DNA of 40,614 nucleotides from a virus: the IMG/VR virus record IMGVR_UViG_3300028830_000010; one strand, given 5' to 3'. Positions 1 through 40,144 of the stretch are shown piece after piece; the first letter of the stretch is position 1; each line of letters begins with the position of its first letter. A program made the position numbers and the translations under genes. The notes under the pieces are model-generated. The model saw nothing but the letters and a program-made list of their open reading frames with translations, was not told the origin of the DNA and did no database searches.

Positions 1-141
1 AGTGCCATCACTTCGTCGTACTGGTGAATGGTGTAGGCGGTAATCATGATGGCTCCACAATAAAGCTATAGTCAGCCAGGATGGCGTAGTCCGTCGCAAC
101 CGCCATCTGAAGACTGACCGCGCACGTTACGTCGGCAGCGG
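1..141. repeat. Terminal overlap, identical to 40474-40614 (circular assembly signature or direct terminal repeat)
   Basis: Direct comparison: AGTGCCATCACTTCGTCG...GTCGGCAGCGG occurs at both contig ends over 141 bp. ORFs join cleanly across the junction. Confidence 0.9.
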
Positions 142-2879: not shown

Positions 2880-3353
2880 TTACTCCGGATGCAATAACTT
2901 CCACAATTTGCCACTTTTAATCTTATAAATTGTTTTCGTATGTATATTAAAAGCTTCCGCTATTTCAGACCGCTTCCTATCATCCAATAGAATAGCAACA
3001 ACATCCCACTCGGTTAACTTGCACATAGGATTATTTTCCCCTATATAGCGCGGTGATCTACCCTTTTTTACCATGTCAGCCATGTTGTCTGAATGTGTAC
3101 CCACAAAAAGATGATCTGGGTTTATACAAGCCCTATTGTCACAACTATGGCAAACATACTTTCCTTTCGGGATATCCCCAAACTTTTGAATATATGAAGC
3201 CCTATGAGCCGACATCGTTATTTTCTTATGCTTCAATATCCCATAACCAGCCTTCCCAATACCACCAACCCAAATTACACAACCACATTCAGGTATTGGA
3301 ACCCCATATTTATCAAGTTTTTCAGATATAGACAGCGCAGCTTTTCTCGGCAT
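2880..3353 (-). CDS. HNH homing endonuclease (HNH_3-like) with C-terminal HTH
   Basis: Motif CHSCDNRACINPDHLFVGTHSDNMADM. Visibly AT-richer than its neighbours. RBS AGGAGG lies upstream of the ATG. Confidence 0.85.
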   Translation of the reverse strand: MPRKAALSISEKLDKYGVPIPECGCVIWVGGIGKAGYGILKHKKITMSAHRASYIQKFGDIPKGKYVCHSCDNRACINPDHLFVGTHSDNMADMVKKGRSPRYIGENNPMCKLTEWDVVAILLDDRKRSEIAEAFNIHTKTIYKIKSGKLWKLLHPE

Positions 3354-3458
3354 ATATACCTCCTAGTTCATAATAGCACACATTGGTATACATAGCTAGT
3401 CGTCGAGGCTCCAACACCCGACCCCCGCCTGCCTCGAACCACCCCCCCCTATGCGTTA

Positions 3459-3556
3459 GTAAGCACTCACTCGCCCCAGTGAGCGCACACTAACACACAT
3501 ATATAAGCTAACACTAATTGGACATAACCGCCATTCTGCGAATCGTAAGCACTCAC
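3459..3556 (+). repeat. 12-bp direct repeat GTAAGCACTCAC x2 (3459-3470, 3545-3556)
   Basis: Read directly from the sequence. Lies in the 759-bp non-coding region next to the terminase module. TGAGAATC also occurs twice (3594-3601, 3633-3640). Confidence 0.6.
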
Positions 3557-3704
3557 ACTCATTAACAATCAATAACTTACGCGCATCATGCCGTGAGAAT
3601 CGTTCGCATTCATCCCATAAGCAGGCCGGCAATGAGAATCAATGCTATCCACGCACCATTCATGCAGCTCAGGCCGATACCCAGAACAGCATCGAGGCGG
3701 CAGG

Positions 3705-3874
3705 ACAGGGGCAGTAGTGGCAACGAGAATGAAAACTGGTACGGGAGTGGCGAGATATTTTATGCTTAAACTATAGGGTCACTGGTGGCAAAGCATTTTA
3801 TGCACAATGCTTATGACCCCGCTGCAAGTGCATGAGTCTAAAGGTAAAGGGGCAATAGGGGTCATTAGTGGCAA
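3705..3874 (+). repeat. Three ~20-bp direct repeats, AYAGGG(G)YCAnTrGTGGCAA (iteron- or operator-like)
   Basis: Copies at 3705-3723 (ACAGGGGCAGTAGTGGCAA), 3773-3791 (ATAGGGTCACTGGTGGCAA) and 3855-3874 (ATAGGGGTCATTAGTGGCAA). Further ATAGGGTCA boxes at 4027-4036 (+) and 3984-3991 (-). Confidence 0.65.
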
Positions 3875-3894
3875 GGAAAATGAGTGTACAAAAC

Positions 3895-3943
3895 GTATAC
3901 ATGGGGTCTTATATATGTATACATACTTCGCGGGCACGTATAC
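3895..3943. repeat. Three GTATAC palindromes spaced 21-22 bp apart in an AT-rich stretch
   Basis: GTATACAT at 3895-3902 and 3917-3924, GTATAC at 3938-3943. Confidence 0.55.
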
Positions 3944-4056
3944 GGGCCGACTTTGCAAAACTGGCTTGCTACTGACCCCGATTGACCCTATTTGTGCTGA
4001 TTTTGTTTGTATTACATACGTTTGCGATAGGGTCACTATTTTTATCGGCTGGTTGA

Positions 4057-4085
4057 TTGACTTAAATGTCTATATTAACTATACT
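4057..4085 (+). promoter_or_regulatory. Sigma70-like early promoter, TTGACT-17 nt-TATACT
   Basis: Near-consensus hexamers about 28 nt upstream of the first plus-strand gene (RBS GGAG, ATG at 4113). Confidence 0.55.
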
Positions 4086-4112
4086 GATTCAGTTATTCCG
4101 TAACCATTATTA

Positions 4113-4379
4113 ATGGAGAAACTCATGTATCCGAAAAGACTTGATGATAGTTTTGACCTGGCATTTGACTTTGATAAATTGTCTGCTTGGCTGGCTGGGC
4201 TTCCTGCGGGTTTGTACTATACCAAGGATTTGTTTAAAGCCTATACGGCGGCGCATGGGGTATCTGGTGGCCGGCATTGGCGGTTGTTTTCTTCTCAGCT
4301 ACACAAGCATGGGTTGTATGTGTCAAGGCATAACGGTTGCACCATTGCGCGAAAAGCTGATAAGGCGGCGGTGATTTAG
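4113..4379 (+). CDS. Hypothetical early protein (88 aa)
   Basis: First ORF after the early promoter, with a GGAG RBS. Confidence 0.6.
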   Translation: MEKLMYPKRLDDSFDLAFDFDKLSAWLAGLPAGLYYTKDLFKAYTAAHGVSGGRHWRLFSSQLHKHGLYVSRHNGCTIARKADKAAVI

Positions 4380-4422
4380 TTAGCCATTACTAACATCGCG
4401 CATCATCATAAAAATAACTTCC

Positions 4423-4450
4423 TTGCAATCATTGATGCATTTGCTATCAT
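4423..4450 (+). promoter_or_regulatory. Sigma70-like promoter, TTGCAA-16 nt-TATCAT
   Basis: Hexamers read directly from the sequence, upstream of the 4495 ORF. Confidence 0.4.
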
Positions 4451-4494
4451 TGCACTGTACCGAGCTAATCGGGATGACAAAGGAGCAGGGGGAA

Positions 4495-4791
4495 ATGAAA
4501 ACAGCGAGCGAGATTTATAGGCAGCATGTCCGCATTTCGGCAAGGATTTCTTTGGTGGCTAGGATGTTTGCAAAACGTGCGCATCCTGCAACAAGCGGCA
4601 ATGATATGCTTTGCCATAACTGGGGAAATGAAGAAAGCCGAAAAGTATGGAGACGCGCCTATAAACGCATGGACAAGGCGCAGGCGATATATCAACGCAT
4701 GTATTCGCTCGCGGAACATGCGCAGCACCATGATGCTAAATTCTGCCCGCTTTGGTGCGAGCATTGCCAATCCCGCCCTTCGGGGCGGTAA
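4495..4791 (+). CDS. Hypothetical protein (98 aa)
   Basis: ORF-track ORF 4423-4791. The start is placed at ATG 4495, behind AGGAG (4481-4485) and downstream of the predicted promoter. Confidence 0.5.
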   Translation: MKTASEIYRQHVRISARISLVARMFAKRAHPATSGNDMLCHNWGNEESRKVWRRAYKRMDKAQAIYQRMYSLAEHAQHHDAKFCPLWCEHCQSRPSGR

Positions 4792-4802
4792 CTGAAAGGA
4801 GA

Positions 4803-4979
4803 ATGGAAATGGGCAAATATGACGAATTCAGGCCGGGTATCTACGGCACATTCAGGGAAGATGGTTACAGGGATGCGATCAAAGACTTAGACCCAAGTCC
4901 GCCAGATATTGGCGTTTTAGCTGATGAATACATGGAAGGCTATAACGCAGGATTAATTACAATGTGGGAGACACAATGA
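4803..4979 (+). CDS. Hypothetical protein (58 aa)
   Basis: ATG 4803 is preceded by AAGGAG. The upstream part of the track ORF overlaps the previous gene. Confidence 0.45.
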   Translation: MEMGKYDEFRPGIYGTFREDGYRDAIKDLDPSPPDIGVLADEYMEGYNAGLITMWETQ

Positions 4980-5119
4980 AAACCTACATGATCCGCAACA
5001 TACCGCTTGACCTGTACAAGCAGGTTCAGCACGCCGCAATTGATCGCGGTATCACCATCGGCGCATACATGATCCTTGCGCTGCGGGCGTTTCTGAAAAC
5101 TGACACGAAGGGGGAATGA
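4976..5119 (+). CDS. Ribbon-helix-helix (Arc/CopG-like) DNA-binding protein, 47 aa
   Basis: Hand-translated, below the ORF-track size cutoff: MKTYMIRNIPLDLYKQVQHAAIDRGITIGAYMILALRAFLKTDTKGE. ATGA overlap with the upstream stop, and the next ATG follows 2 nt after its own stop. Confidence 0.55.
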   Translation: MKTYMIRNIPLDLYKQVQHAAIDRGITIGAYMILALRAFLKTDTKGE

Positions 5120-5120
5120 C

Positions 5121-5510
5121 ATGAACCGCGATACATACGAAATGCTGAACCGCCTGCAATCCATCGGGATTGACTATAACGATGCGAATGCAATCCGCCG
5201 ATGTGCTATGACCCTGCATCGCTGGAACGAACTGGAGTGTGGAACCGATTCCGGCGCAGTCGAACGTGATGAGGACACTGGCAAAACCTACTGGGTCAAC
5301 GCCATGACCGGAAAACGCTGGCCGACCCCTGACCGTGAAACCGGCGCAGTCAAACGGCTGAATGCCATTATGGCGCGGTATCCTCGATTGTCGGCATACC
5401 TGCAAGGCGATCCTCGCGGCGCATCGGTCTACATCCTGCGGCCCGGCGACGTGCCGGAAGGGTGCGATGCTGATGCTTACTACAGCCGGGGCATTGCGGT
5501 TTTCAAATAG
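5121..5510 (+). CDS. Hypothetical protein (129 aa)
   Basis: Tightly packed ORF with no recognised motif. Confidence 0.6.
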   Translation: MNRDTYEMLNRLQSIGIDYNDANAIRRCAMTLHRWNELECGTDSGAVERDEDTGKTYWVNAMTGKRWPTPDRETGAVKRLNAIMARYPRLSAYLQGDPRGASVYILRPGDVPEGCDADAYYSRGIAVFK

Positions 5511-12952: not shown

Positions 12953-13020
12953 TGGACGTCGACTACGTAATCCTGTTCTGCATCGTCAGCTTCATGGCTG
13001 GCTATTACCTCGGAGAGTGA
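12949..13020 (+). CDS. Small hydrophobic peptide (23 aa)
   Basis: Hand-translated MMDVDYVILFCIVSFMAGYYLGE. Fills the gap between coupled genes. Confidence 0.2.
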   Translation: MMDVDYVILFCIVSFMAGYYLGE

Positions 13021-13021
13021 A

Positions 13022-13519
13022 ATGAGCTTACCCGCGCTGTACCAGCTTACCCGCGAATATCAAGAGGCATACGAGACTCTGGCTGATATGAATCTGCCGG
13101 AAGAAGTGATGCACGATACGCTCGAAGGATTGCAGGGCGATATCGAGAAGAAGGCCGAGAACGTCGCTTGCGTCATCCGCAACTTCGAGAGCATGGCCGA
13201 GCAGATCAAGCAAGCCGAGAAGCAACTGAAGCAACGCCGTGACGCATACGAACACAGGGCCGAACATATCCGCGCTTACCTGCTGCACAACATGCAGGCT
13301 TGCGGCATCAGCAAGATAGAATCGCCGTGGTTCAAGATTGCCGTGCGCGACAATCCCGAATCGGTGGAGATTACCGGCGCTGTCCCGCCTGAATACATGC
13401 GCCAGCCTGAACCGCCGCCGCCAGCACCTGACAAGGCCATGATTAAGGCCGATCTCAAGGACGGCAAGCAGTTTGACTTTGCGCGGCTTACGCGCACTCA
13501 ACGTGTGGAGATCAAATGA
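13022..13519 (+). CDS. Gp157-family protein (recombination-module accessory)
   Basis: The N-terminal pattern (YQLTREYQEAYETL...LEGLQGDIEKKAENVA) and C-terminal part (FKIAVRDNPESVEI) match the Siphovirus Gp157 family. Sits immediately upstream of ERF. Confidence 0.65.
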   Translation: MSLPALYQLTREYQEAYETLADMNLPEEVMHDTLEGLQGDIEKKAENVACVIRNFESMAEQIKQAEKQLKQRRDAYEHRAEHIRAYLLHNMQACGISKIESPWFKIAVRDNPESVEITGAVPPEYMRQPEPPPPAPDKAMIKADLKDGKQFDFARLTRTQRVEIK

Positions 13520-33827: not shown

Positions 33828-34591
33828 TTACTCGACGATTACACCCTGCATTTTCCTGTTTGACAACGTCAAATTCCCCATCCATAGTATGGGGATCACC
33901 GAGCCATCTTGGTTGATCGGGCGCTGATCTTCCAGCACTTCCATATCGGCGTCGCGGTGAACCACAAGCTCGATATAGTTAGTGTTGAGGAAGTAAGCGT
34001 GTGAAGACGGAATTCCACTATTGCCGTCGAAATAGACATCAGCGTTCTTGTACTTCAGCGAGACAAGCCCGCCGTTGGCGTTGCTGGCATCCATATAACG
34101 CTTGATGGAAGTCTGCGAAGCCTCGAAGTAACGGTAGTACGTGTTGTCCATCACGATCAGGTCGGGCTGGTCATCCGGGCCACGATCAAGGTTCAGCCAC
34201 AACGGAAGCATCATGCTGTTCTCGATGGTCGTCGCGCTCGAAGTTACCGAGTTGGCCGAACAGTCAAAGATCGTGTTTTTCCAGAACGAGAACGAGGACG
34301 AGTTGATGCCACCCACGGTGCCGGTGCCAGCGTCGGCCACAAGGGCTTGCAGACCGTTGATCTGGTTGGTCGCGGTGCCGTCGCTGTACAGATCGGACGA
34401 GAACGAGTTGTTGAAGGTACGGATCGCGTTCTTCATCTTGGCCTTCGCCAGAGAGAAGATACGGGATTCGCCGCTGTTGATGCGCTGCTCACGACCGGAA
34501 GCAACCACGTTGACCGCAATCTGCCGCCATTGGTACTCTGCGGCGCTGATAACGTCGGATTGCTGGATATTCAGCAAGTCCCAGTCACTAT
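33828..34591 (-). CDS. Major capsid protein, exon 2
   Basis: In frame with exon 1 after removing 34592-35496. The junction reads ...DYTTNSTYQR-Y-SDWDLLNIQQSDVISAAEYQWRQ, giving a 320-aa spliced protein. Confidence 0.75.
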
Positions 34592-35496
34592 CGAAAATGT
34601 TATCGTGCGGCTCTTTATCCGCACTTCTATGGGTCACCCCATAGTCCAGACTATATCTTCCCTTGCGGGCCGGGGGCTCGTGTCGCTTTACCGCCATGCC
34701 GCTTTCGCGGGTTAGGCTCCATGCGTTAGTCGTTACACCTTCCGCTGCTTTCGCAAGCGGCTTGGCTCGGTATTGACTTAATGTTTGGGACAGTGTATCG
34801 TTGATAACATTAAGTGTTCCACCGAATTCACCCGGTTTTTCAATGGAGGCAACATGAGGAAGCGCAAAGACAGCGGCGTTGGTGCTAGGCCGTACCGCAA
34901 GAATGGTGCAATGTTCAACTGCATCATTTGCGGTGCTGAATTCTACCGGAAGGCTAGTTTTATAGCTCGCGGCATAACCAAGACTTGCGGTAAATCCGAG
35001 TGCAAGAGCAAGGCTTTTAGCGGCGAAAACAATCCGGCTTGGGGACGAATCCCTACGCAAGAGAACAGAGACGCTGTTACCAATAGCAACTTGGCTAGAC
35101 CGAAACGACCCGGCCCGCCCGCTGGATGGAAGCCCAGTCTTGAGCATAGGGCGGCTATTTCTGCCGCACTCAAAACCCGCTGGCTTCTTCACCGTGACAA
35201 GATGATCGCCGCACTCACGAAGCCGAAGCTTAGTGATAGCCCAAGACATAGGCGAGAATTCACTCCCTGGCAAAAGGCGAACTGGAAAGCAGCCTGTTGC
35301 GCTTGGTGTGAAACTACCGATGGTCTTGAGTTGGATCACATCATTCCTATCGTTGCTGGTGGCATTAACATCAAAGAAAACTCTCAAACCCTATGTCGTA
35401 AGTGCAATCTATGGAAAATGGCTTACGTTGATCGCCCTTACTACATTTCTATGTTGGCATCCAAAGCGGCTAGTTAGGCGCAAAACGCCAAGGTCA
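34592..35496 (-). ncRNA. Group I self-splicing intron (T4 td / IA2-like core), 905 nt
   Basis: The minus strand contains UAACGACUAA (P7 5') and GGGAAGAUAUAGUCUG (J8/7-P7 3'). GACUA pairs with UAGUC. Followed by hairpin CUAUGGG-GUGA-CCCAUAG, plus GNRA hairpins CCGC-GAAA-GCGG and CCC-GCAA-GGG. The 5' exon ends in U and the intron ends in G. Confidence 0.8.
34854..35477 (+). CDS. HNH homing endonuclease with NUMOD-like repeats, encoded antisense inside the capsid-gene intron
   Basis: CAWCETTDGLELDHIIPIVAGGINIKENSQTLCRKCNLWK HNH motif. ATG 34854 follows GGAGG. A candidate promoter TTGACT-17 nt-TATCGT lies at 34773-34801. Confidence 0.8.
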   Translation: MRKRKDSGVGARPYRKNGAMFNCIICGAEFYRKASFIARGITKTCGKSECKSKAFSGENNPAWGRIPTQENRDAVTNSNLARPKRPGPPAGWKPSLEHRAAISAALKTRWLLHRDKMIAALTKPKLSDSPRHRREFTPWQKANWKAACCAWCETTDGLELDHIIPIVAGGINIKENSQTLCRKCNLWKMAYVDRPYYISMLASKAAS

Positions 35497-35695
35497 ACCG
35501 TTGGTAAGTGCTGTTGGTCGTGTAATCAAGCGGGCAAACGATAGTCAGTCCGCCATCTTCGGTGCGGTAGTTCCCGCGCTTGTAGATGTGCTTGAGCAGG
35601 GCGTTGCGGTTGGAAAGGTTGTCTTTGACATCCTTCCGAACCTTACGGAAGGTCGAAGTGACCAGTTCCGTAAAAGTGCTGTTAGGCGAGGCCAT
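35497..35695 (-). CDS. Major capsid protein, exon 1
   Basis: MASPNSTFTELVTSTFRKVRKDVKDNLSNRNALLKHIYKRG... is a typical capsid N-terminus. The unspliced ORF stops 7 codons into the intron. Confidence 0.75.
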
Positions 35696-35713
35696 AATTG
35701 GCTCCTTTCAGAG

Positions 35714-36769
35714 TTAATGAGTACGTGCTTTGATTTCGCGCATTGCTTCTTTCATTGCGCTATCCAAGTCCCTCATCGTTCCTTTCGGCTGCTCTGTAGG
35801 AGTCCTACGGGTGTCACGATTGCGGATATTCGTTGATGCTGCCTTCTTTGCCGCTTCTGCCTGCTCTCTCGCCTTTTTGTCGGCTTCCGCTTTGGCTTCT
35901 GTCTGAATCCTTGCGGTTTCCTTGGCGCGAGTGCCGGGATTTGCCCATACCGCCCGATCATAAGCATCCTGCAACGGCAAACCAGCCTTAAGCATCACAA
36001 TGATGTCGTCGGCCACTTCGTCAAAGTAGGGATGCGCCGGATCGGACGCAAAGGTATTCACTTCCTGACTGATGCGGGTACGCTCGGCGTTGAGTTGTTG
36101 TTCACTGCCGGAGTGGATAACCTGCTTCAGTTGATGCAATTCATCTTGTAGTTGTGCCAAGCGCGGATCGACGGATTGCTGTCCACCCTGCGTCTGTTGG
36201 CGCAGGCTTTGGTCGATACCGTACTGTTTTGCGATGTAATCTAGGTACTGCGCCTTCTGTGAAGGTGGTGATACGGAAAGCTTGTAATGCGCGTTCAGGA
36301 GGGTTTGAACCGCTCTCGGCGCATCAATGCCCTGCGCTTGGATAAGCGCCATATAAGGCGTAACGGCATCCCGCATTGCCTTCCCATATACAGCATCACC
36401 TTTGTACTGTTCGAGTCCGTCAAGCATTTGCTTCTCGCGGACTTCCCAATAGTCCTGCACTTCCTTGGGAGTTTTGCTCCAATGTTCGTGCATTTCCTTG
36501 GGCCATGTCTTTGGGGCTGGCTTTCCTTCAATCGCGGCCTTGGCCGCATCGTCTGTGGAAGCGCCATCTTTTTCCGGTTCAGTTGCCTGCTTAGTATCAG
36601 CAGGTTCCGTGATTGCATTAGTACCCGCATCTTCTGCATCGTCGGACGCCTCTCTTTCGGAAGCAGGAAACAGGTCTCCGGCCAAGTCGTTTGACGCTTG
36701 ATCTATATCAAATCCGCCTTGATCGCCGGTATCTTGGCCGCTGTCGGCAACCGCTGCTTCGTCTGACAT
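35714..36769 (-). CDS. Scaffolding protein
   Basis: Lies between portal and capsid genes. Acidic N-terminus, helical Q/A/E-rich core and basic C-terminus. Confidence 0.6.
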   Translation of the reverse strand: MSDEAAVADSGQDTGDQGGFDIDQASNDLAGDLFPASEREASDDAEDAGTNAITEPADTKQATEPEKDGASTDDAAKAAIEGKPAPKTWPKEMHEHWSKTPKEVQDYWEVREKQMLDGLEQYKGDAVYGKAMRDAVTPYMALIQAQGIDAPRAVQTLLNAHYKLSVSPPSQKAQYLDYIAKQYGIDQSLRQQTQGGQQSVDPRLAQLQDELHQLKQVIHSGSEQQLNAERTRISQEVNTFASDPAHPYFDEVADDIIVMLKAGLPLQDAYDRAVWANPGTRAKETARIQTEAKAEADKKAREQAEAAKKAASTNIRNRDTRRTPTEQPKGTMRDLDSAMKEAMREIKARTH

Positions 36770-37263: not shown

Positions 37264-39483
37264 TCAAACTCCTTCCTGTTGTGTTCTTGCGGAGGCCTGA
37301 ATACGTGCTATTTCAACTTGCGCTGCAACTTGAATCTCTGTTTTCTTTATCTCTGTATCTCGCTGAATGTTCGCTTTCATCTGCTCGATGCGCTGCTCCA
37401 TCATAAGCTTTTCTTTTTCCGCAGCAAGGTCGGCAATCAACTGTTGCTTCTCTGCCTCTTTCTCTGCTTGCAACTTAGCCATTTCAAGTTGCATTTCAGC
37501 TTTGAACTCCATAACCTTCTGCTGCATTTCAGCCTGTAGCGCCTGCTGATCCATCTGCGCTTTTTGCTGCACTTCGGCCATCTGCATCTTGGCGTCCTGA
37601 TGCGCCTGAGCCATCTCTGCCTTCAGCTTGTCCGCTTCAGGATTACCCTTACCTTGCGGAGCCTGCATGTTCTTGAACTGTTCCTCGACTTCCGTACCGA
37701 ATCGGAAGCGCCGGATGACGGCAAGCATCAACTCCTTCGCGCCCTCGAACGGCATGGTGCCGGACTCGACCATCGGATTCAGACCGGCAAGCAACTGGCC
37801 CATCGCGTTCATGAAGTCGCCTATCTGTTTCTGATCCTCTGTGGCTTCCACGTCGACCGTGCTGTTCGTCTCGATGTCGATGCGATAGGCGCGTTGAATG
37901 TCGTCACGCAGCAACGCGAGAACGTCATCCCATACTGGCGCTGCTAATGCTTGTTGAATCTGCGGATCGGGCGGCTGTGGCGGCGGCGGTTGCATACCTT
38001 GCTGCTGTGCCATCATGGCTTGCTGCTGCGCTTGTATTTGCTGCGCTTGGACGATCTGCTGTGCTTGAGCCTTCTGTTGTGCGGTTACGAACGGCAGTCC
38101 AGTAGCCTTGGCCCATGTCTCAACGCTAAACTTGCTGGCGGCGATCTCCAGCATGATGCGGAGCATGTCGCGTGAGTAGCGTTGCACTTCTTTCTGCAAC
38201 CGCTTGAGTCGCATGGTTCCCCACGATTCCTTGATCTTCTGCGCTCCAAGCGTCTCACTCGCAACCGATTGGCCGCGAATGATGTCGGATACACCTGTGA
38301 TCTCGTAGATAACGCGCTTGCATTGCTCACGCGCTGCAACCAGCTTCTCGGCAACCTGCATCAACTCCTGCAACGGCATGAACCAGATCGCCTTGTCCAA
38401 GCCACCTTCTCCGATCAGCGACGATGCCTTGTCTGTCGGTATGAGCGCGTTGTCGTCTTCCTTGAGGATGGATTCGATCTCATTGCCGAGGGAGCCGTCA
38501 TACGCTCCGCGCACCTTCAACGCGCTTACGACTTTCTGCAAGCGTCGCGTCAAGTTATTCAGTTCCTTGGCCTGATTCTCGTACAGCTTGTACATCGCCG
38601 TAGGAAGCAGGTCGTTTGACTTCTCGATGAATTGCAGCGGTCTTGGGCAGTTGTAGAACCCTGTGATGCCTAGTGGATCGTCCTCGACCTTGAGATAACC
38701 GTCGTGGTATGCCGGTGAGATATAACGCACCACCTTTCCGCCGGACTTGTCCCAAATCTGGTAGACGAGTGCTGTTTTGCGTCCTCCCTGCTCGTTGTCG
38801 GCGTCGTCTCTACCGCCAGTTCCGGTTCCTTTTTCTTCCGGGTCATCGTCATCCTCTCCAAGCGTGTAGGTGATCTTCCCGGCAATTTCAGCGCCAAAAA
38901 GGCGTTCTGCTTCTTCCTTGTCGATAAATTCCTCGTAGGCAATCCACGGCACTTTCGACCACTTCTTCGCGTATCCGAAATACACCCTGTCCCATCCGCG
39001 AGTTTCGGTGCAGACCTGCTCCCAGTTGACTACAGGGACAGAACCTTCTTCTCCGGTATCCAGAATGTCCGCGTCGTATTTAATAGACGTGATACCGCGT
39101 CCGGGCAGAAGCCCGTCAAGTGTTGCGTATCTGACTGATTGCTCAAAAGTCTCGTATCCTTCTACGTTAGTGTCGCACAGATATTCCAGCATCCGCTGTC
39201 CAGCCTTGGACGATGCTGCGCCTACGGGATCATCGTCCTTGAAACGGCGTTGTACTACGGGGCGCGGGACTTGTGAGAACAGGGCGGGAAGTAGGGTCTC
39301 TACATTTGAAAAACATATATTGAAGGGCGTCTCATCCTGACGTTTTCCAGAATAAATCTCTATAACTTCTTGTCCGTCTTTCCTGTAATCCTTTTCTCTC
39401 CGCTTTGCCGAAGCAATTTCACCAAGCCAATATCTAACTTCAGATGAAGGCTCTCCAGCTTTTCTTTCCTTAGGCTTGGCCAT
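37264..39483 (-). CDS. Portal protein with long C-terminal coiled-coil (barrel-like) extension
   Basis: 739 aa. The N-terminal FNICFSNVETLLPALFSQVPRPVVQRR block is typical of portals. The C-terminal ~150 aa are Q/E/K/A/M-rich. Confidence 0.85.
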   Translation of the reverse strand: MAKPKERKAGEPSSEVRYWLGEIASAKRREKDYRKDGQEVIEIYSGKRQDETPFNICFSNVETLLPALFSQVPRPVVQRRFKDDDPVGAASSKAGQRMLEYLCDTNVEGYETFEQSVRYATLDGLLPGRGITSIKYDADILDTGEEGSVPVVNWEQVCTETRGWDRVYFGYAKKWSKVPWIAYEEFIDKEEAERLFGAEIAGKITYTLGEDDDDPEEKGTGTGGRDDADNEQGGRKTALVYQIWDKSGGKVVRYISPAYHDGYLKVEDDPLGITGFYNCPRPLQFIEKSNDLLPTAMYKLYENQAKELNNLTRRLQKVVSALKVRGAYDGSLGNEIESILKEDDNALIPTDKASSLIGEGGLDKAIWFMPLQELMQVAEKLVAAREQCKRVIYEITGVSDIIRGQSVASETLGAQKIKESWGTMRLKRLQKEVQRYSRDMLRIMLEIAASKFSVETWAKATGLPFVTAQQKAQAQQIVQAQQIQAQQQAMMAQQQGMQPPPPQPPDPQIQQALAAPVWDDVLALLRDDIQRAYRIDIETNSTVDVEATEDQKQIGDFMNAMGQLLAGLNPMVESGTMPFEGAKELMLAVIRRFRFGTEVEEQFKNMQAPQGKGNPEADKLKAEMAQAHQDAKMQMAEVQQKAQMDQQALQAEMQQKVMEFKAEMQLEMAKLQAEKEAEKQQLIADLAAEKEKLMMEQRIEQMKANIQRDTEIKKTEIQVAAQVEIARIQASARTQQEGV

Positions 39484-40144
39484 TTGTCACTACCTTTCTT
39501 GACAGCCCATTCTTAATCCTCCAAGCCATCCCAATACTAACTCCGAATTCCTTTGCCATACTTTTGTATGTTTTTCCTACTGAATTGAAAATTTCAAGCA
39601 CTACATCAGCAGGAATTCTTGCGGTTGTTTTTTGTTTTATTGCCCACCTTGCCTTTAGTGAAGCGACTCTTTTCGCAACTGATTCGGCAGATTGTTTTTC
39701 AGGGTGAATCTCATGCCACCGTGCCTTGTATGTAGCAGCTGCTTTTTTACGAGATTCAGGCGTCATAAGATGAATCGGTTTCTTTCCCTTTTTAGCAGCA
39801 GACATATTTGAGCGCGCTTCGTCACTAGCCTTTACTCCGCGTCGGCTACTTCCTTCCAAGCAAACGTTGTATTTTTTATCGTGTTGTGCGATCCAGAATG
39901 TTTCTCTCTCATCAATCACATGCATATCGCAAAACTCAATGATGAAGAATCTAAACGCACTTTCACCGTCACGATTGTATGCGCGCTGAAGTCTCGGATT
40001 GCGATGATCTCCTCTACGGAAGGCTCTGAAATGCTGTTCGCAGCGAAGCCAAATGTGCTGTGCTTGACCAACATACACGCGGCCATCGTTGAGATTCACA
40101 ATGCCGTAAATTCCAGCCTTTCGTTCTTCTTTGCGCTTCGCCAT
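39470..40144 (-). CDS. GIY-YIG homing endonuclease
   Basis: GIYGIVN...GRVYVGQA...R..H...N..E motif set, NUMOD-like repeats and a C-terminal HTH. AT-rich. Overlaps the portal start by 14 nt. Confidence 0.85.
   Translation of the reverse strand: MAKRKEERKAGIYGIVNLNDGRVYVGQAQHIWLRCEQHFRAFRRGDHRNPRLQRAYNRDGESAFRFFIIEFCDMHVIDERETFWIAQHDKKYNVCLEGSSRRGVKASDEARSNMSAAKKGKKPIHLMTPESRKKAAATYKARWHEIHPEKQSAESVAKRVASLKARWAIKQKTTARIPADVVLEIFNSVGKTYKSMAKEFGVSIGMAWRIKNGLSRKVVTNGQA

Follow-up and report, generated by a model that had tools for sequence, protein, structure and literature searches.

The virus sequence IMGVR_UViG_3300028830_000010 from IMG/VR, 40,614 nt long and analyzed here at its full length (hereafter the window), raises the question of how a phage can make its major capsid protein from a gene that is cut in two, with the reading frame closing shortly after the first 66 codons and the remainder resuming in another frame on the far side of a 905 nt insert. 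Our comparative analyses indicate that the insert is very probably a mobile, IA-like group I intron interrupting the gene for the major capsid protein of a podovirus-like phage, and that it carries a gene for an HNH homing endonuclease on the strand opposite to the capsid gene.

The major capsid gene and its predicted splice junction

The N-terminus of the capsid protein is encoded by an open reading frame (ORF) of 73 amino acids (aa) on the − strand (35695–35474), which comprises 66 residues of the head protein followed by seven codons (LTLAFCA) and a stop; the remaining head protein lies on the same strand in a different frame and ends at 33828. Joining position 35497 to 34591 removes 905 nt (34592–35496) and restores a continuous protein of 320 aa. 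Exon 1 (35497–35695, −), delimited by ORF translation and by tblastn with homologs, contains codons 1–66 and the first base of codon 67, ending in U35497, while exon 2 (33828–34591, −), delimited by comparison with homologs and by a PHROG match, extends from the last two bases of codon 67 to the stop codon. An earlier note, made by reading the letters of this DNA, had described the stop seven codons after NSTYQR, the resumption at 34591 in another register after a 905 nt interval and the uninterrupted product, and all of this is borne out by the ORF frames and by a product length shared with more than 100 homologs.

A search among 5.8 billion proteins retrieved thousands of relatives of the spliced product; the best 120 are uninterrupted, 80–100% identical to it and nearly all exactly 320 aa long. 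The motif (S/G/T)TYQR(Y/F)SDWD spans the junction in all 120 listed homologs, with R-Y in 119 of them and R-F in the other, and the spliced product matches the phrog_9953 major head protein end to end over residues 4–320 (E = 3.5e-77). Intron-less DNA alleles (L002, L004, and L005) align to both exons and leave exactly T|AT, which is the sole junction that produces the conserved tyrosine (...YQR-Y-SDWD...). Because of these alleles and of the tyrosine, the junction can be placed at T|AT, correct to the base, and the junction residue for which the earlier note had looked to intron-less homologs is confirmed (STYQRYSDWD). The ligated RNA is predicted to read CAACGGU|AUAGUGAC at the junction, and the predicted peptide spanning it is ...STYQRYSDWDLLNIQQSDVISAAEYQWR; intron-less alleles L005 and L002 carry ACCTACCAGCGTTACAGCGATTGG at the corresponding site.

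Gene callers divide the head gene into ORFs of 73 and 519 aa. The latter (33828–35387) consists of intron sequence that continues in frame into exon 2 and is for the most part the HNH gene read on its complementary strand, and its equivalents in related loci reach only ~20–36 codons into the intron. We therefore rejected it as a real gene, since its length is not conserved across related loci, in agreement with the earlier view that it is an artefact. Two other explanations for the interruption were also rejected: an intein, because of the stop codons and the frame shift, and translational bypassing, for which 905 nt is far too long.

The insert has a structurally conserved group I core

In a permissive Rfam scan, Intron_gpI (RF00028) was the only match in the whole window, with 46.7 bits and an E value of 6.4e-9. 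The default scan was empty because this score is below the gathering score of 50 bits, an operational cut-off and not a biological feature, and the score itself is lowered by a short P8 helix and a large insert in P2; the match foreseen in the earlier note thus appears in the permissive scan and is missing at the default threshold. The match extends over 34627–34881 (−; model positions 1–253) and places P3 to P9 sensibly, but only 34627–34837 corresponds to the real core, and the placement of P1 and P2 in 34838–34881 is spurious. Related capsid genes contain introns in the corresponding region as well, which scored 51–77 bits in nine loci and 35–46 in four. A match to the LOOT RNA over P7.1–P9.1 (23.9 bits, with a cut-off of 46.4) was treated as noise.

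We examined structural conservation in an alignment of the 3′ halves of 15 family introns, from loci with 25–100% capsid identity, on which P3, P4, the base of P5, P6, P6a, P7 (as a pseudoknot), P7.1, P8, P9, and P9.1 were drawn by hand. MAFFT put P5 and P9.1 in no single register, and for these only the P5 base and the inner P9.1 pairs were counted. Standard pairs are formed in 96.4% of the cells, versus ~36% when the partners are slid by 1–3 columns; changes on both sides of a pair, that is, compensatory changes, occur in 25 of the 48 pairs, and none of 500 shuffles matched the observed values. The P7 pairing GACUA/UAGUC, recognized in the earlier note, is invariant in the 15 introns, and four of the five pairs in the outer stem of P7.1/P7.2 covary. 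Additionally, the minimum-energy fold of the intron without the ORF produces P1, P2, P3–P6, P8, P9, and P9.1. Together, these results argue that the insert is a real, structurally conserved group I ribozyme with canonical features at its splice sites.

All elements of the core lie on the − strand and were located from the alignment, with the help of Rfam for P7 and P8 and of the fold for P4/P5 and P9/P9.1. The 5′ strand of P3 (CCGGGUG, 34829–34835) pairs with 34670–34676. The region 34767–34825 contains P4 (34820–34825 with 34767–34772) around P5 (34807–34815 with 34776–34784), with loop L5 at 34785–34806, and is followed by P6/P6a (34737–34766). The two strands of P7 are at 34727–34731 and 34649–34653, the second preceded by J8/7 (AAGAUA), and are included in the core strings AACGACUAACG (34724–34734) and AAGAUAUAGUC (34649–34659). 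Between them are the P7.1/P7.2 extension (34684–34725) and a very short P8 (CCC-GCAA-GGG, 34660–34669), and the core is completed, within 34605–34644, by P9 (34627–34644) and P9.1 (34605–34624). Loops of the GNRA type cap P6 and P7.1 (GAAA in both), P8 (GCAA), and P9 (GUGA), the last in the hairpin CUAUGGG-GUGA-CCCAUAG. The earlier note had quoted these strings, the hairpin and several GNRA-capped helices, and all were found as described. It had also called the core T4 td-like: we assign the intron to the IA type because it has a P7.1/P7.2 extension, as in td, but the likeness holds at the level of the subgroup only, since BLAST finds no primary similarity to td.

At the 5′ splice site, P1 (35461–35504) pairs the exon sequence CCAACGGU (35497–35504) with the internal guide GCCGCUUUGG (GCCG-CU-UUGG, 35461–35470), leaving a U35497.G35470 wobble at the splice site and a small hairpin in the P1 loop (35477–35489) in the fold. 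This is the guide proposed in the earlier note, which had also remarked that exon 1 ends in U and the intron in G (here G34592). A U.G at the 5′ splice site is found in 11 of the 15 constrained folds of family members, and the last exon bases and the guide covary across loci (CGGU/GCCG, AGGU/GCCU, GGGU/GCCC, and GGACU/GGUCC). From the sequence, a short P10 can be proposed between the guide ACUA (35471–35474) and exon 2 bases +2 to +5 (UAGU, 34587–34590), with CUGAAU/AUUCAG as its likely equivalent in L088. In the fold, P2 is formed by a 5′ strand, GGAUGCCAACAU (35451–35462), which is complementary to the final codons of the HNH gene, and a 3′ strand, AUGUUGCCUCC (34845–34855), which corresponds exactly to the complement of the Shine-Dalgarno sequence and start codon of that gene.

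The exon sequences close to the junction also differ between the window and the intron-less alleles. There are six synonymous changes, all within 12 nt of the junction. A minimum of two, CGT to CGG in P1 and AGC to AGT in P10, give rise to new pairs with the guide. A 20-mer of the ligated junction with intron-type codons (ACCAACGGTATAGTGACTGG), which could come from a spliced transcript or from a precise loss of the intron, was absent from metagenome and viral contigs; its absence from those collections indicates that the intron-type codons travel with the intron.

An HNH endonuclease gene lies antisense in the P2 loop

The most unusual feature of the locus, absent from the earlier note, is a gene of 207 codons on the + strand (34854–35477) that fills the loop of P2, identified from its ORF, Pfam matches and homologs as an HNH/NUMOD3 homing endonuclease gene. 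The sequence GGAGG is found at 34845–34849, five bases ahead of the ATG, and the stop codon adjoins the guide sequence; the gene sits between P1 and P3. The stop (TAG, 35475–35477) overlaps, on the other strand and directly beside the internal guide, the UAA (35476–35474) that ends read-through from exon 1. The protein matches the Pfam families HNH_5 (5e-10), HNH (8e-8), and NUMOD3 (5e-4), and its closest solved structure is 4h9d, an HNH endonuclease. It has 88 homologs with identities of 34–99%; among 33 aligned sequences, the zinc-binding residues C149, C152, C181, and C184 (forming two CxxC motifs) as well as D161, H162, N176, and N185 are invariant or nearly so. No relative was found with tblastn among 50,697 deposited phage genomes. 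A packaging-associated HNH protein was considered and rejected, because there is no adjoining terminase gene and the gene is absent from most relatives.

Since it is encoded on the other strand, this gene cannot be translated from the capsid transcript. An ORF within a group I intron is usually expected on the intron strand; here the gene is intronic, in the P2 loop, yet it runs in the opposite direction. We inspected the orientation in other loci with matches to the HNH profile (17 from IMG/VR, 10 from genomes, and 65 from metagenomes). Three homologs, located by their exact protein sequence, lie opposite to a run of structural genes and between ORFs of 69–73 and 274–289 aa. In all loci with enough flanking sequence (more than 60, with capsid identities of 25–100%), capsid exons are found on both sides of the HNH gene and on the opposite strand, with residues 1 to ~66 beyond its 3′ end and residues from ~68 onward before its 5′ end. 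The signature of the intron core (AACGACTA...CAMGAR...GAKATAGTC) was opposite to the HNH gene in 33 of the 65 metagenome loci and shared its strand in not one of them, and every Rfam match among the family loci was on the strand opposite to the HNH gene. As a contrast, we used a sample of 120 IMG/VR loci with this signature, where HNH-like ORFs were sense in at least ten and antisense only in one further member of the same family and in one weak case, located downstream. From these comparisons, the inverted layout is a trait of the family and not an accident.

A candidate promoter antisense to the P5 hairpin

The only promoter-like site in the interval 34300–35800 is a sigma-70-like candidate, TTGACT-17-TATCGT (34773–34801, +), found by promoter scan and family comparison 52 nt before the HNH ATG. 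It is antisense to P5′ and L5: the −35 box is the complement of the end of P5′ plus the CAA of J5/4, and the −10 box is antisense to sequence in loop L5. The pattern TTGNNN-16..18-TAnnnT, nearly always with a spacing of 17, was present in 11 of 15 family members in a first set and in 20 of 30 distinct members in an independent metagenome set (31/45 combined). Other introns with the core signature, which lack antisense ORFs, showed it in only 3 of 36 cases (Fisher p = 8e-6 when compared with the first set), and TAnnnT has a background frequency of 1.8% per position.

The same pattern might instead be a feature of the ribozyme RNA, such as a tertiary contact or a protein-binding loop, with the HNH gene being expressed by read-through on the + strand or not expressed at all. 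The TTG is the antisense of the conserved CAA of J5/4 and occurs in 25 of 37 control introns; a promoter scan of the window is at the level of chance, with one site found versus 1.2 expected; and the −10 boxes are off consensus, that of the window (TATCGT) being weak, about one third of the family members lacking a clean one, and the consensus itself being that of sigma-70, which may not be the one used by the host. However, TAnnnT at a fixed distance of 17 nt is nearly confined to the family with the antisense endonuclease, in a loop that is otherwise variable in sequence and length, and in every member the pattern lies 45–60 nt upstream of the HNH start. We thus regard a purely RNA role as possible, though rather unlikely, and the comparisons as good evidence for, but not proof of, an internal promoter in the P5 hairpin. 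Whether this is a widespread family of capsid introns read on both strands, in which P5 and J5/4 also provide the −35 and −10 boxes for expression of the HNH gene and P2 is made of the antisense of its ribosome binding site, start and last codons, is a question for which we see the chances as evenly balanced.

Probable mobility of the intron and diversity of the family

The intron occupies the same site in two of 80 related capsid loci from IMG/VR. Between the window and L043, which is one of these two loci, the intron shows a single mismatch in 905 nt (99.9% identity), while exon 2 and the scaffold gene are only 92.3 and 91.4% identical, respectively; a tract of identity extends from 28 nt upstream of the insertion site in exon 1 to 115 nt into exon 2, after which mismatches are dense. 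Because an intron that is 99.9% identical sits in a capsid gene with ~92% identity, this distribution indicates recent homing with co-conversion of the flanking exons.

The insertion sites differ by exactly 9 nt between subfamilies, within codons ~63–70 of the capsid gene, and each of the three sites follows the first base (U) of a codon for an aromatic residue. The site after YQR+U is used in the window, L088, and L089, that after YSG+U in L093, L095, L096, L099, L102, L103, and L109, and that after NST+U by the upstream insertion of L086. Since these sites, 9 nt apart, each follow the U of an aromatic codon, their distribution suggests repeated invasions of one conserved capsid motif.

Several loci have a more complex organization. 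In L086 (~3200–5390, capsid on the − strand) there are seemingly two insertions 9 nt apart, separated by the mini-exon AUCAACGGU. The upstream one carries a different antisense HNH gene (172 aa, phrog_5046), and the downstream intron an antisense HNH gene plus, in the P9 loop, a sense ORF of 176 aa resembling endonuclease VII, which amounts to three endonuclease genes in one head gene; neither insertion was detected by Rfam at an E value of 0.001. L097 has three Intron_gpI matches on the capsid strand (922–1193, 2252–2525, and 3221–3454, with 51, 44, and 33 bits, respectively), and L103 (~1200–2280) contains a second intron-like insert, past residue ~95, that carries a sense-strand ORF. In L111 (from a Verrucomicrobia metagenome-assembled genome, MAG) and L292 (from activated sludge) the capsid gene is apparently uninterrupted, with residues 6–318 in one piece, and the first 60 capsid codons are repeated just upstream, where a relative of the HNH gene also lies in antisense orientation; the arrangement may represent an endonuclease gene that has no intron, or what is left of a recombination event.

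Some of these arrangements would also be expected if the HNH gene were an independent selfish gene, lodged in the intron as a safe site and not driving its homing, with some other target or a role in a loose form of collaborative homing. Its orientation shows that it does not descend from an ORF carried by the intron in the sense direction; the compact intron of Sporosarcina phage Lietuvens, described below, has neither the P2 helix nor an ORF, as if a cassette had been added to it; and both the HNH gene beside an intact capsid gene in L111 and L292 and the three endonuclease ORFs in the two adjacent introns of L086 are in line with such independence. Nevertheless, the gene is within the intron boundaries, between P1 and P3, its linkage with the capsid intron holds in all the flanked loci despite their divergence, and intron and HNH gene moved as a single, nearly identical block with co-converted exon tracts, all of which makes it improbable that the gene has no part in homing.

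Two further relatives come from outside of IMG/VR. Locus L108 (JAJVIE010000007.1) is a 42.5 kb contig with 97.8% identity to the window over 4.9 kb and 100% identity in the capsid gene and intron; it was binned in a ‘Candidatus Omnitrophota’ MAG, but it is most likely a phage contig and the host assignment is doubtful. Locus L109 (NZ_JAULLL010000031.1), a distant member, is a 42.5 kb contig of high coverage from the cultured Sinorhizobium sp. CB7 and might serve as an experimental system.

Weighing the evidence for a mobile intron

That the capsid gene is simply broken by an HNH cassette and never spliced, the contigs being defective phages or assembly chimeras, would agree with the two ORFs reported by gene callers and with the empty default Rfam scan, but is scarcely credible, because dozens of independent assemblies, 40 kb contigs among them, share this architecture, the compensatory changes reveal a ribozyme core under structural selection, the boundaries can be fixed to the base and comply with the U/G rules, and an essential, single-copy head gene cannot remain broken across such divergence.

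A mobile intron with an antisense endonuclease gene remains our preferred reading, and the following points, in addition to those raised above on the promoter, weigh against it. The Rfam score of the window intron is under the gathering score, and its P8 has only three base pairs. P2 is modelled, from the fold of the window and a hand alignment; the z-scores of its duplex versus shuffled sequences are mostly weak (−3.8 to +1.4 in 15 loci), and the duplex can be drawn by hand in several of them. The members of the family are related to each other, which means that the counts given above overstate their independence. Finally, we infer splicing, a + strand transcript and cleavage from comparisons of sequences.

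Relationship with known introns and homing systems

To our knowledge, the ORFs in the introns of phages SPO1/SP82 (I-HmuI), Bastille (I-BasI), and Pf-WMP3 (I-PfoP3I) and of T4 nrdB (I-TevIII) lie on the intron strand and are translated from intron-containing RNA, whereas the HNH gene is on the opposite strand in every member examined of the family described here and the host gene encodes the major capsid protein instead of a function in DNA metabolism. In other respects, the phage HNH introns (for Pf-WMP3, PMC3428280) are similar to what the sequence of our family suggests: an IA-type, self-splicing intron in an essential gene, an HNH or HNH plus NUMOD gene in a peripheral loop, and a polymorphism of presence and absence with co-conversion of the flanking exons.

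An antisense endonuclease gene in a peripheral helix, in need of its own promoter, is also found in Dir.S956-2 of Didymium iridis, with I-DirII, and in other introns of nuclear rDNA (PMC3073962; PMC3679873). Those, however, are eukaryotic introns of the IC1/IE groups; their enzymes are of the His-Cys box type, and their expression signals comprise a Pol II promoter, a spliceosomal intron and polyadenylation. The window intron does not belong to this type, as it resides in a phage capsid gene and encodes an HNH enzyme, and only the antisense layout is common to both.

Among cultured phages, the nearest intron is that of Sporosarcina phage Lietuvens (MT104122), with 81% identity over 129 nt and 75% over 180 nt. 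The two have the P3–P9.1 core in common, but in Lietuvens both the endonuclease gene and P2 are missing, P5 is short and does not contain the promoter-like pattern, and the intron is located in the region of another host gene, that for the tape-measure protein. It spans ~230 nt (~2945–3185 in locus L001, ~12970–13210 in the record) and is flanked by ORF18, annotated as ‘minor tail protein’, and ORF20, ‘tape measure protein’. No intron is annotated there, and part of the sequence is called ORF19, ‘hypothetical protein’, so the tape-measure gene is probably split and mis-annotated. In a megablast comparison of the 2.1 kb region with deposited phages, the 129 nt Lietuvens match was the only one, and weaker, partial BLAST matches of the intron were to Bacillus and Clostridium phages.

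Collaborative homing, reportedly described in 2009 by Bonocora and Shub and by Zeng and colleagues, is said to combine ORF-less introns with free-standing endonucleases (PhiI of T7-like phages; psbA introns of cyanophages with F-CphI). There, the endonuclease is expressed apart from the intron transcript, as would be the case here, and the intron also interrupts the presumed target, but the endonuclease gene is outside of the intron and on the same strand, whereas here it is inside and inverted.

It is well known that group I introns occur in structural genes of phages and that phage introns can carry HNH genes. Phage introns in the genes for TerL and DNA polymerase were confirmed by reverse transcription PCR (PMC8541194), and Jug phages contain thousands of introns (PMC12880540). 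What appears to be new is an antisense, apparently self-promoted endonuclease gene, with a candidate promoter, in a real group I intron. When we searched the open-access literature for endonuclease genes antisense to group I introns of phages or bacteria, only the nuclear rDNA cases and a match to one paper on a chloroplast genome were retrieved, and the orientation of the endonuclease gene is mentioned neither in a review of bacterial introns (PMC3984707) nor in a 2025 paper on an intron and endonuclease database (PMC11835236).

Proposed mechanism and implications

Taking the structural and comparative data together, we propose that the intron would be transcribed within the late capsid mRNA, on which a ribosome translating exon 1 would stop seven codons into the intron. 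The RNA would form P1 (U35497–G35470), P2 and the P3–P9 core and, to judge from its structure, could excise itself, joining T|AT to produce the 320 aa head protein. The HNH gene would most likely be transcribed from its own sigma-70-like promoter in P5/L5. Judging from the comparative data, the enzyme may cut or nick its presumed target, the intron-less capsid alleles of co-infecting relatives, into which recombinational repair would copy the intron and short exon tracts.

Endonuclease genes of phage introns normally lie on the sense strand, and their translation is restrained lest ribosomes unfold the ribozyme. The family described here appears to solve this conflict by inverting the gene and placing its promoter in a hairpin of the ribozyme, in a compact dual reading of one segment of DNA. 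The inversion might have two benefits, that of uncoupling endonuclease expression from the very strong late expression of the capsid gene and that of keeping ribosomes off the ribozyme; splicing can be blocked when ribosomes enter the ORF of an intron, an in-frame stop early in the intron is the usual situation, and translation of I-TevI must be restrained (PMC3073962). If the intron is indeed read on both strands, the endonuclease would have a programme of expression independent of late capsid transcription, translation and splicing would no longer clash, and the antisense RNA might also affect the capsid pre-mRNA; for group I introns of bacteria or phages, this would be the first description of such an architecture.

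The organization of the family is in line with endonuclease genes being independent cassettes that invade introns, and supports this view. With its sites 9 nt apart, its capsid genes with two or three introns and its fresh co-conversion tracts, it also constitutes natural material to study homing as a gene drive in a structural gene. In practical terms, since gene callers split the head gene and the default Rfam threshold misses the intron, phage classification based on capsid proteins and marker surveys will mis-handle this lineage, as well as dozens of related metagenomic contigs and the unannotated intron of one deposited phage.

Neighboring genes

Upstream of the capsid gene are a gene for a scaffold-sized protein and the portal gene (phrog_12082; 37264–39483). 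An ORF of 224 aa on the − strand (39470–40144), upstream of the portal gene and overlapping it by 14 nt, contains a GIY-YIG catalytic domain (Pfam, 9.5e-9) and is a candidate free-standing homing endonuclease; the genome may therefore hold a second mobile element.

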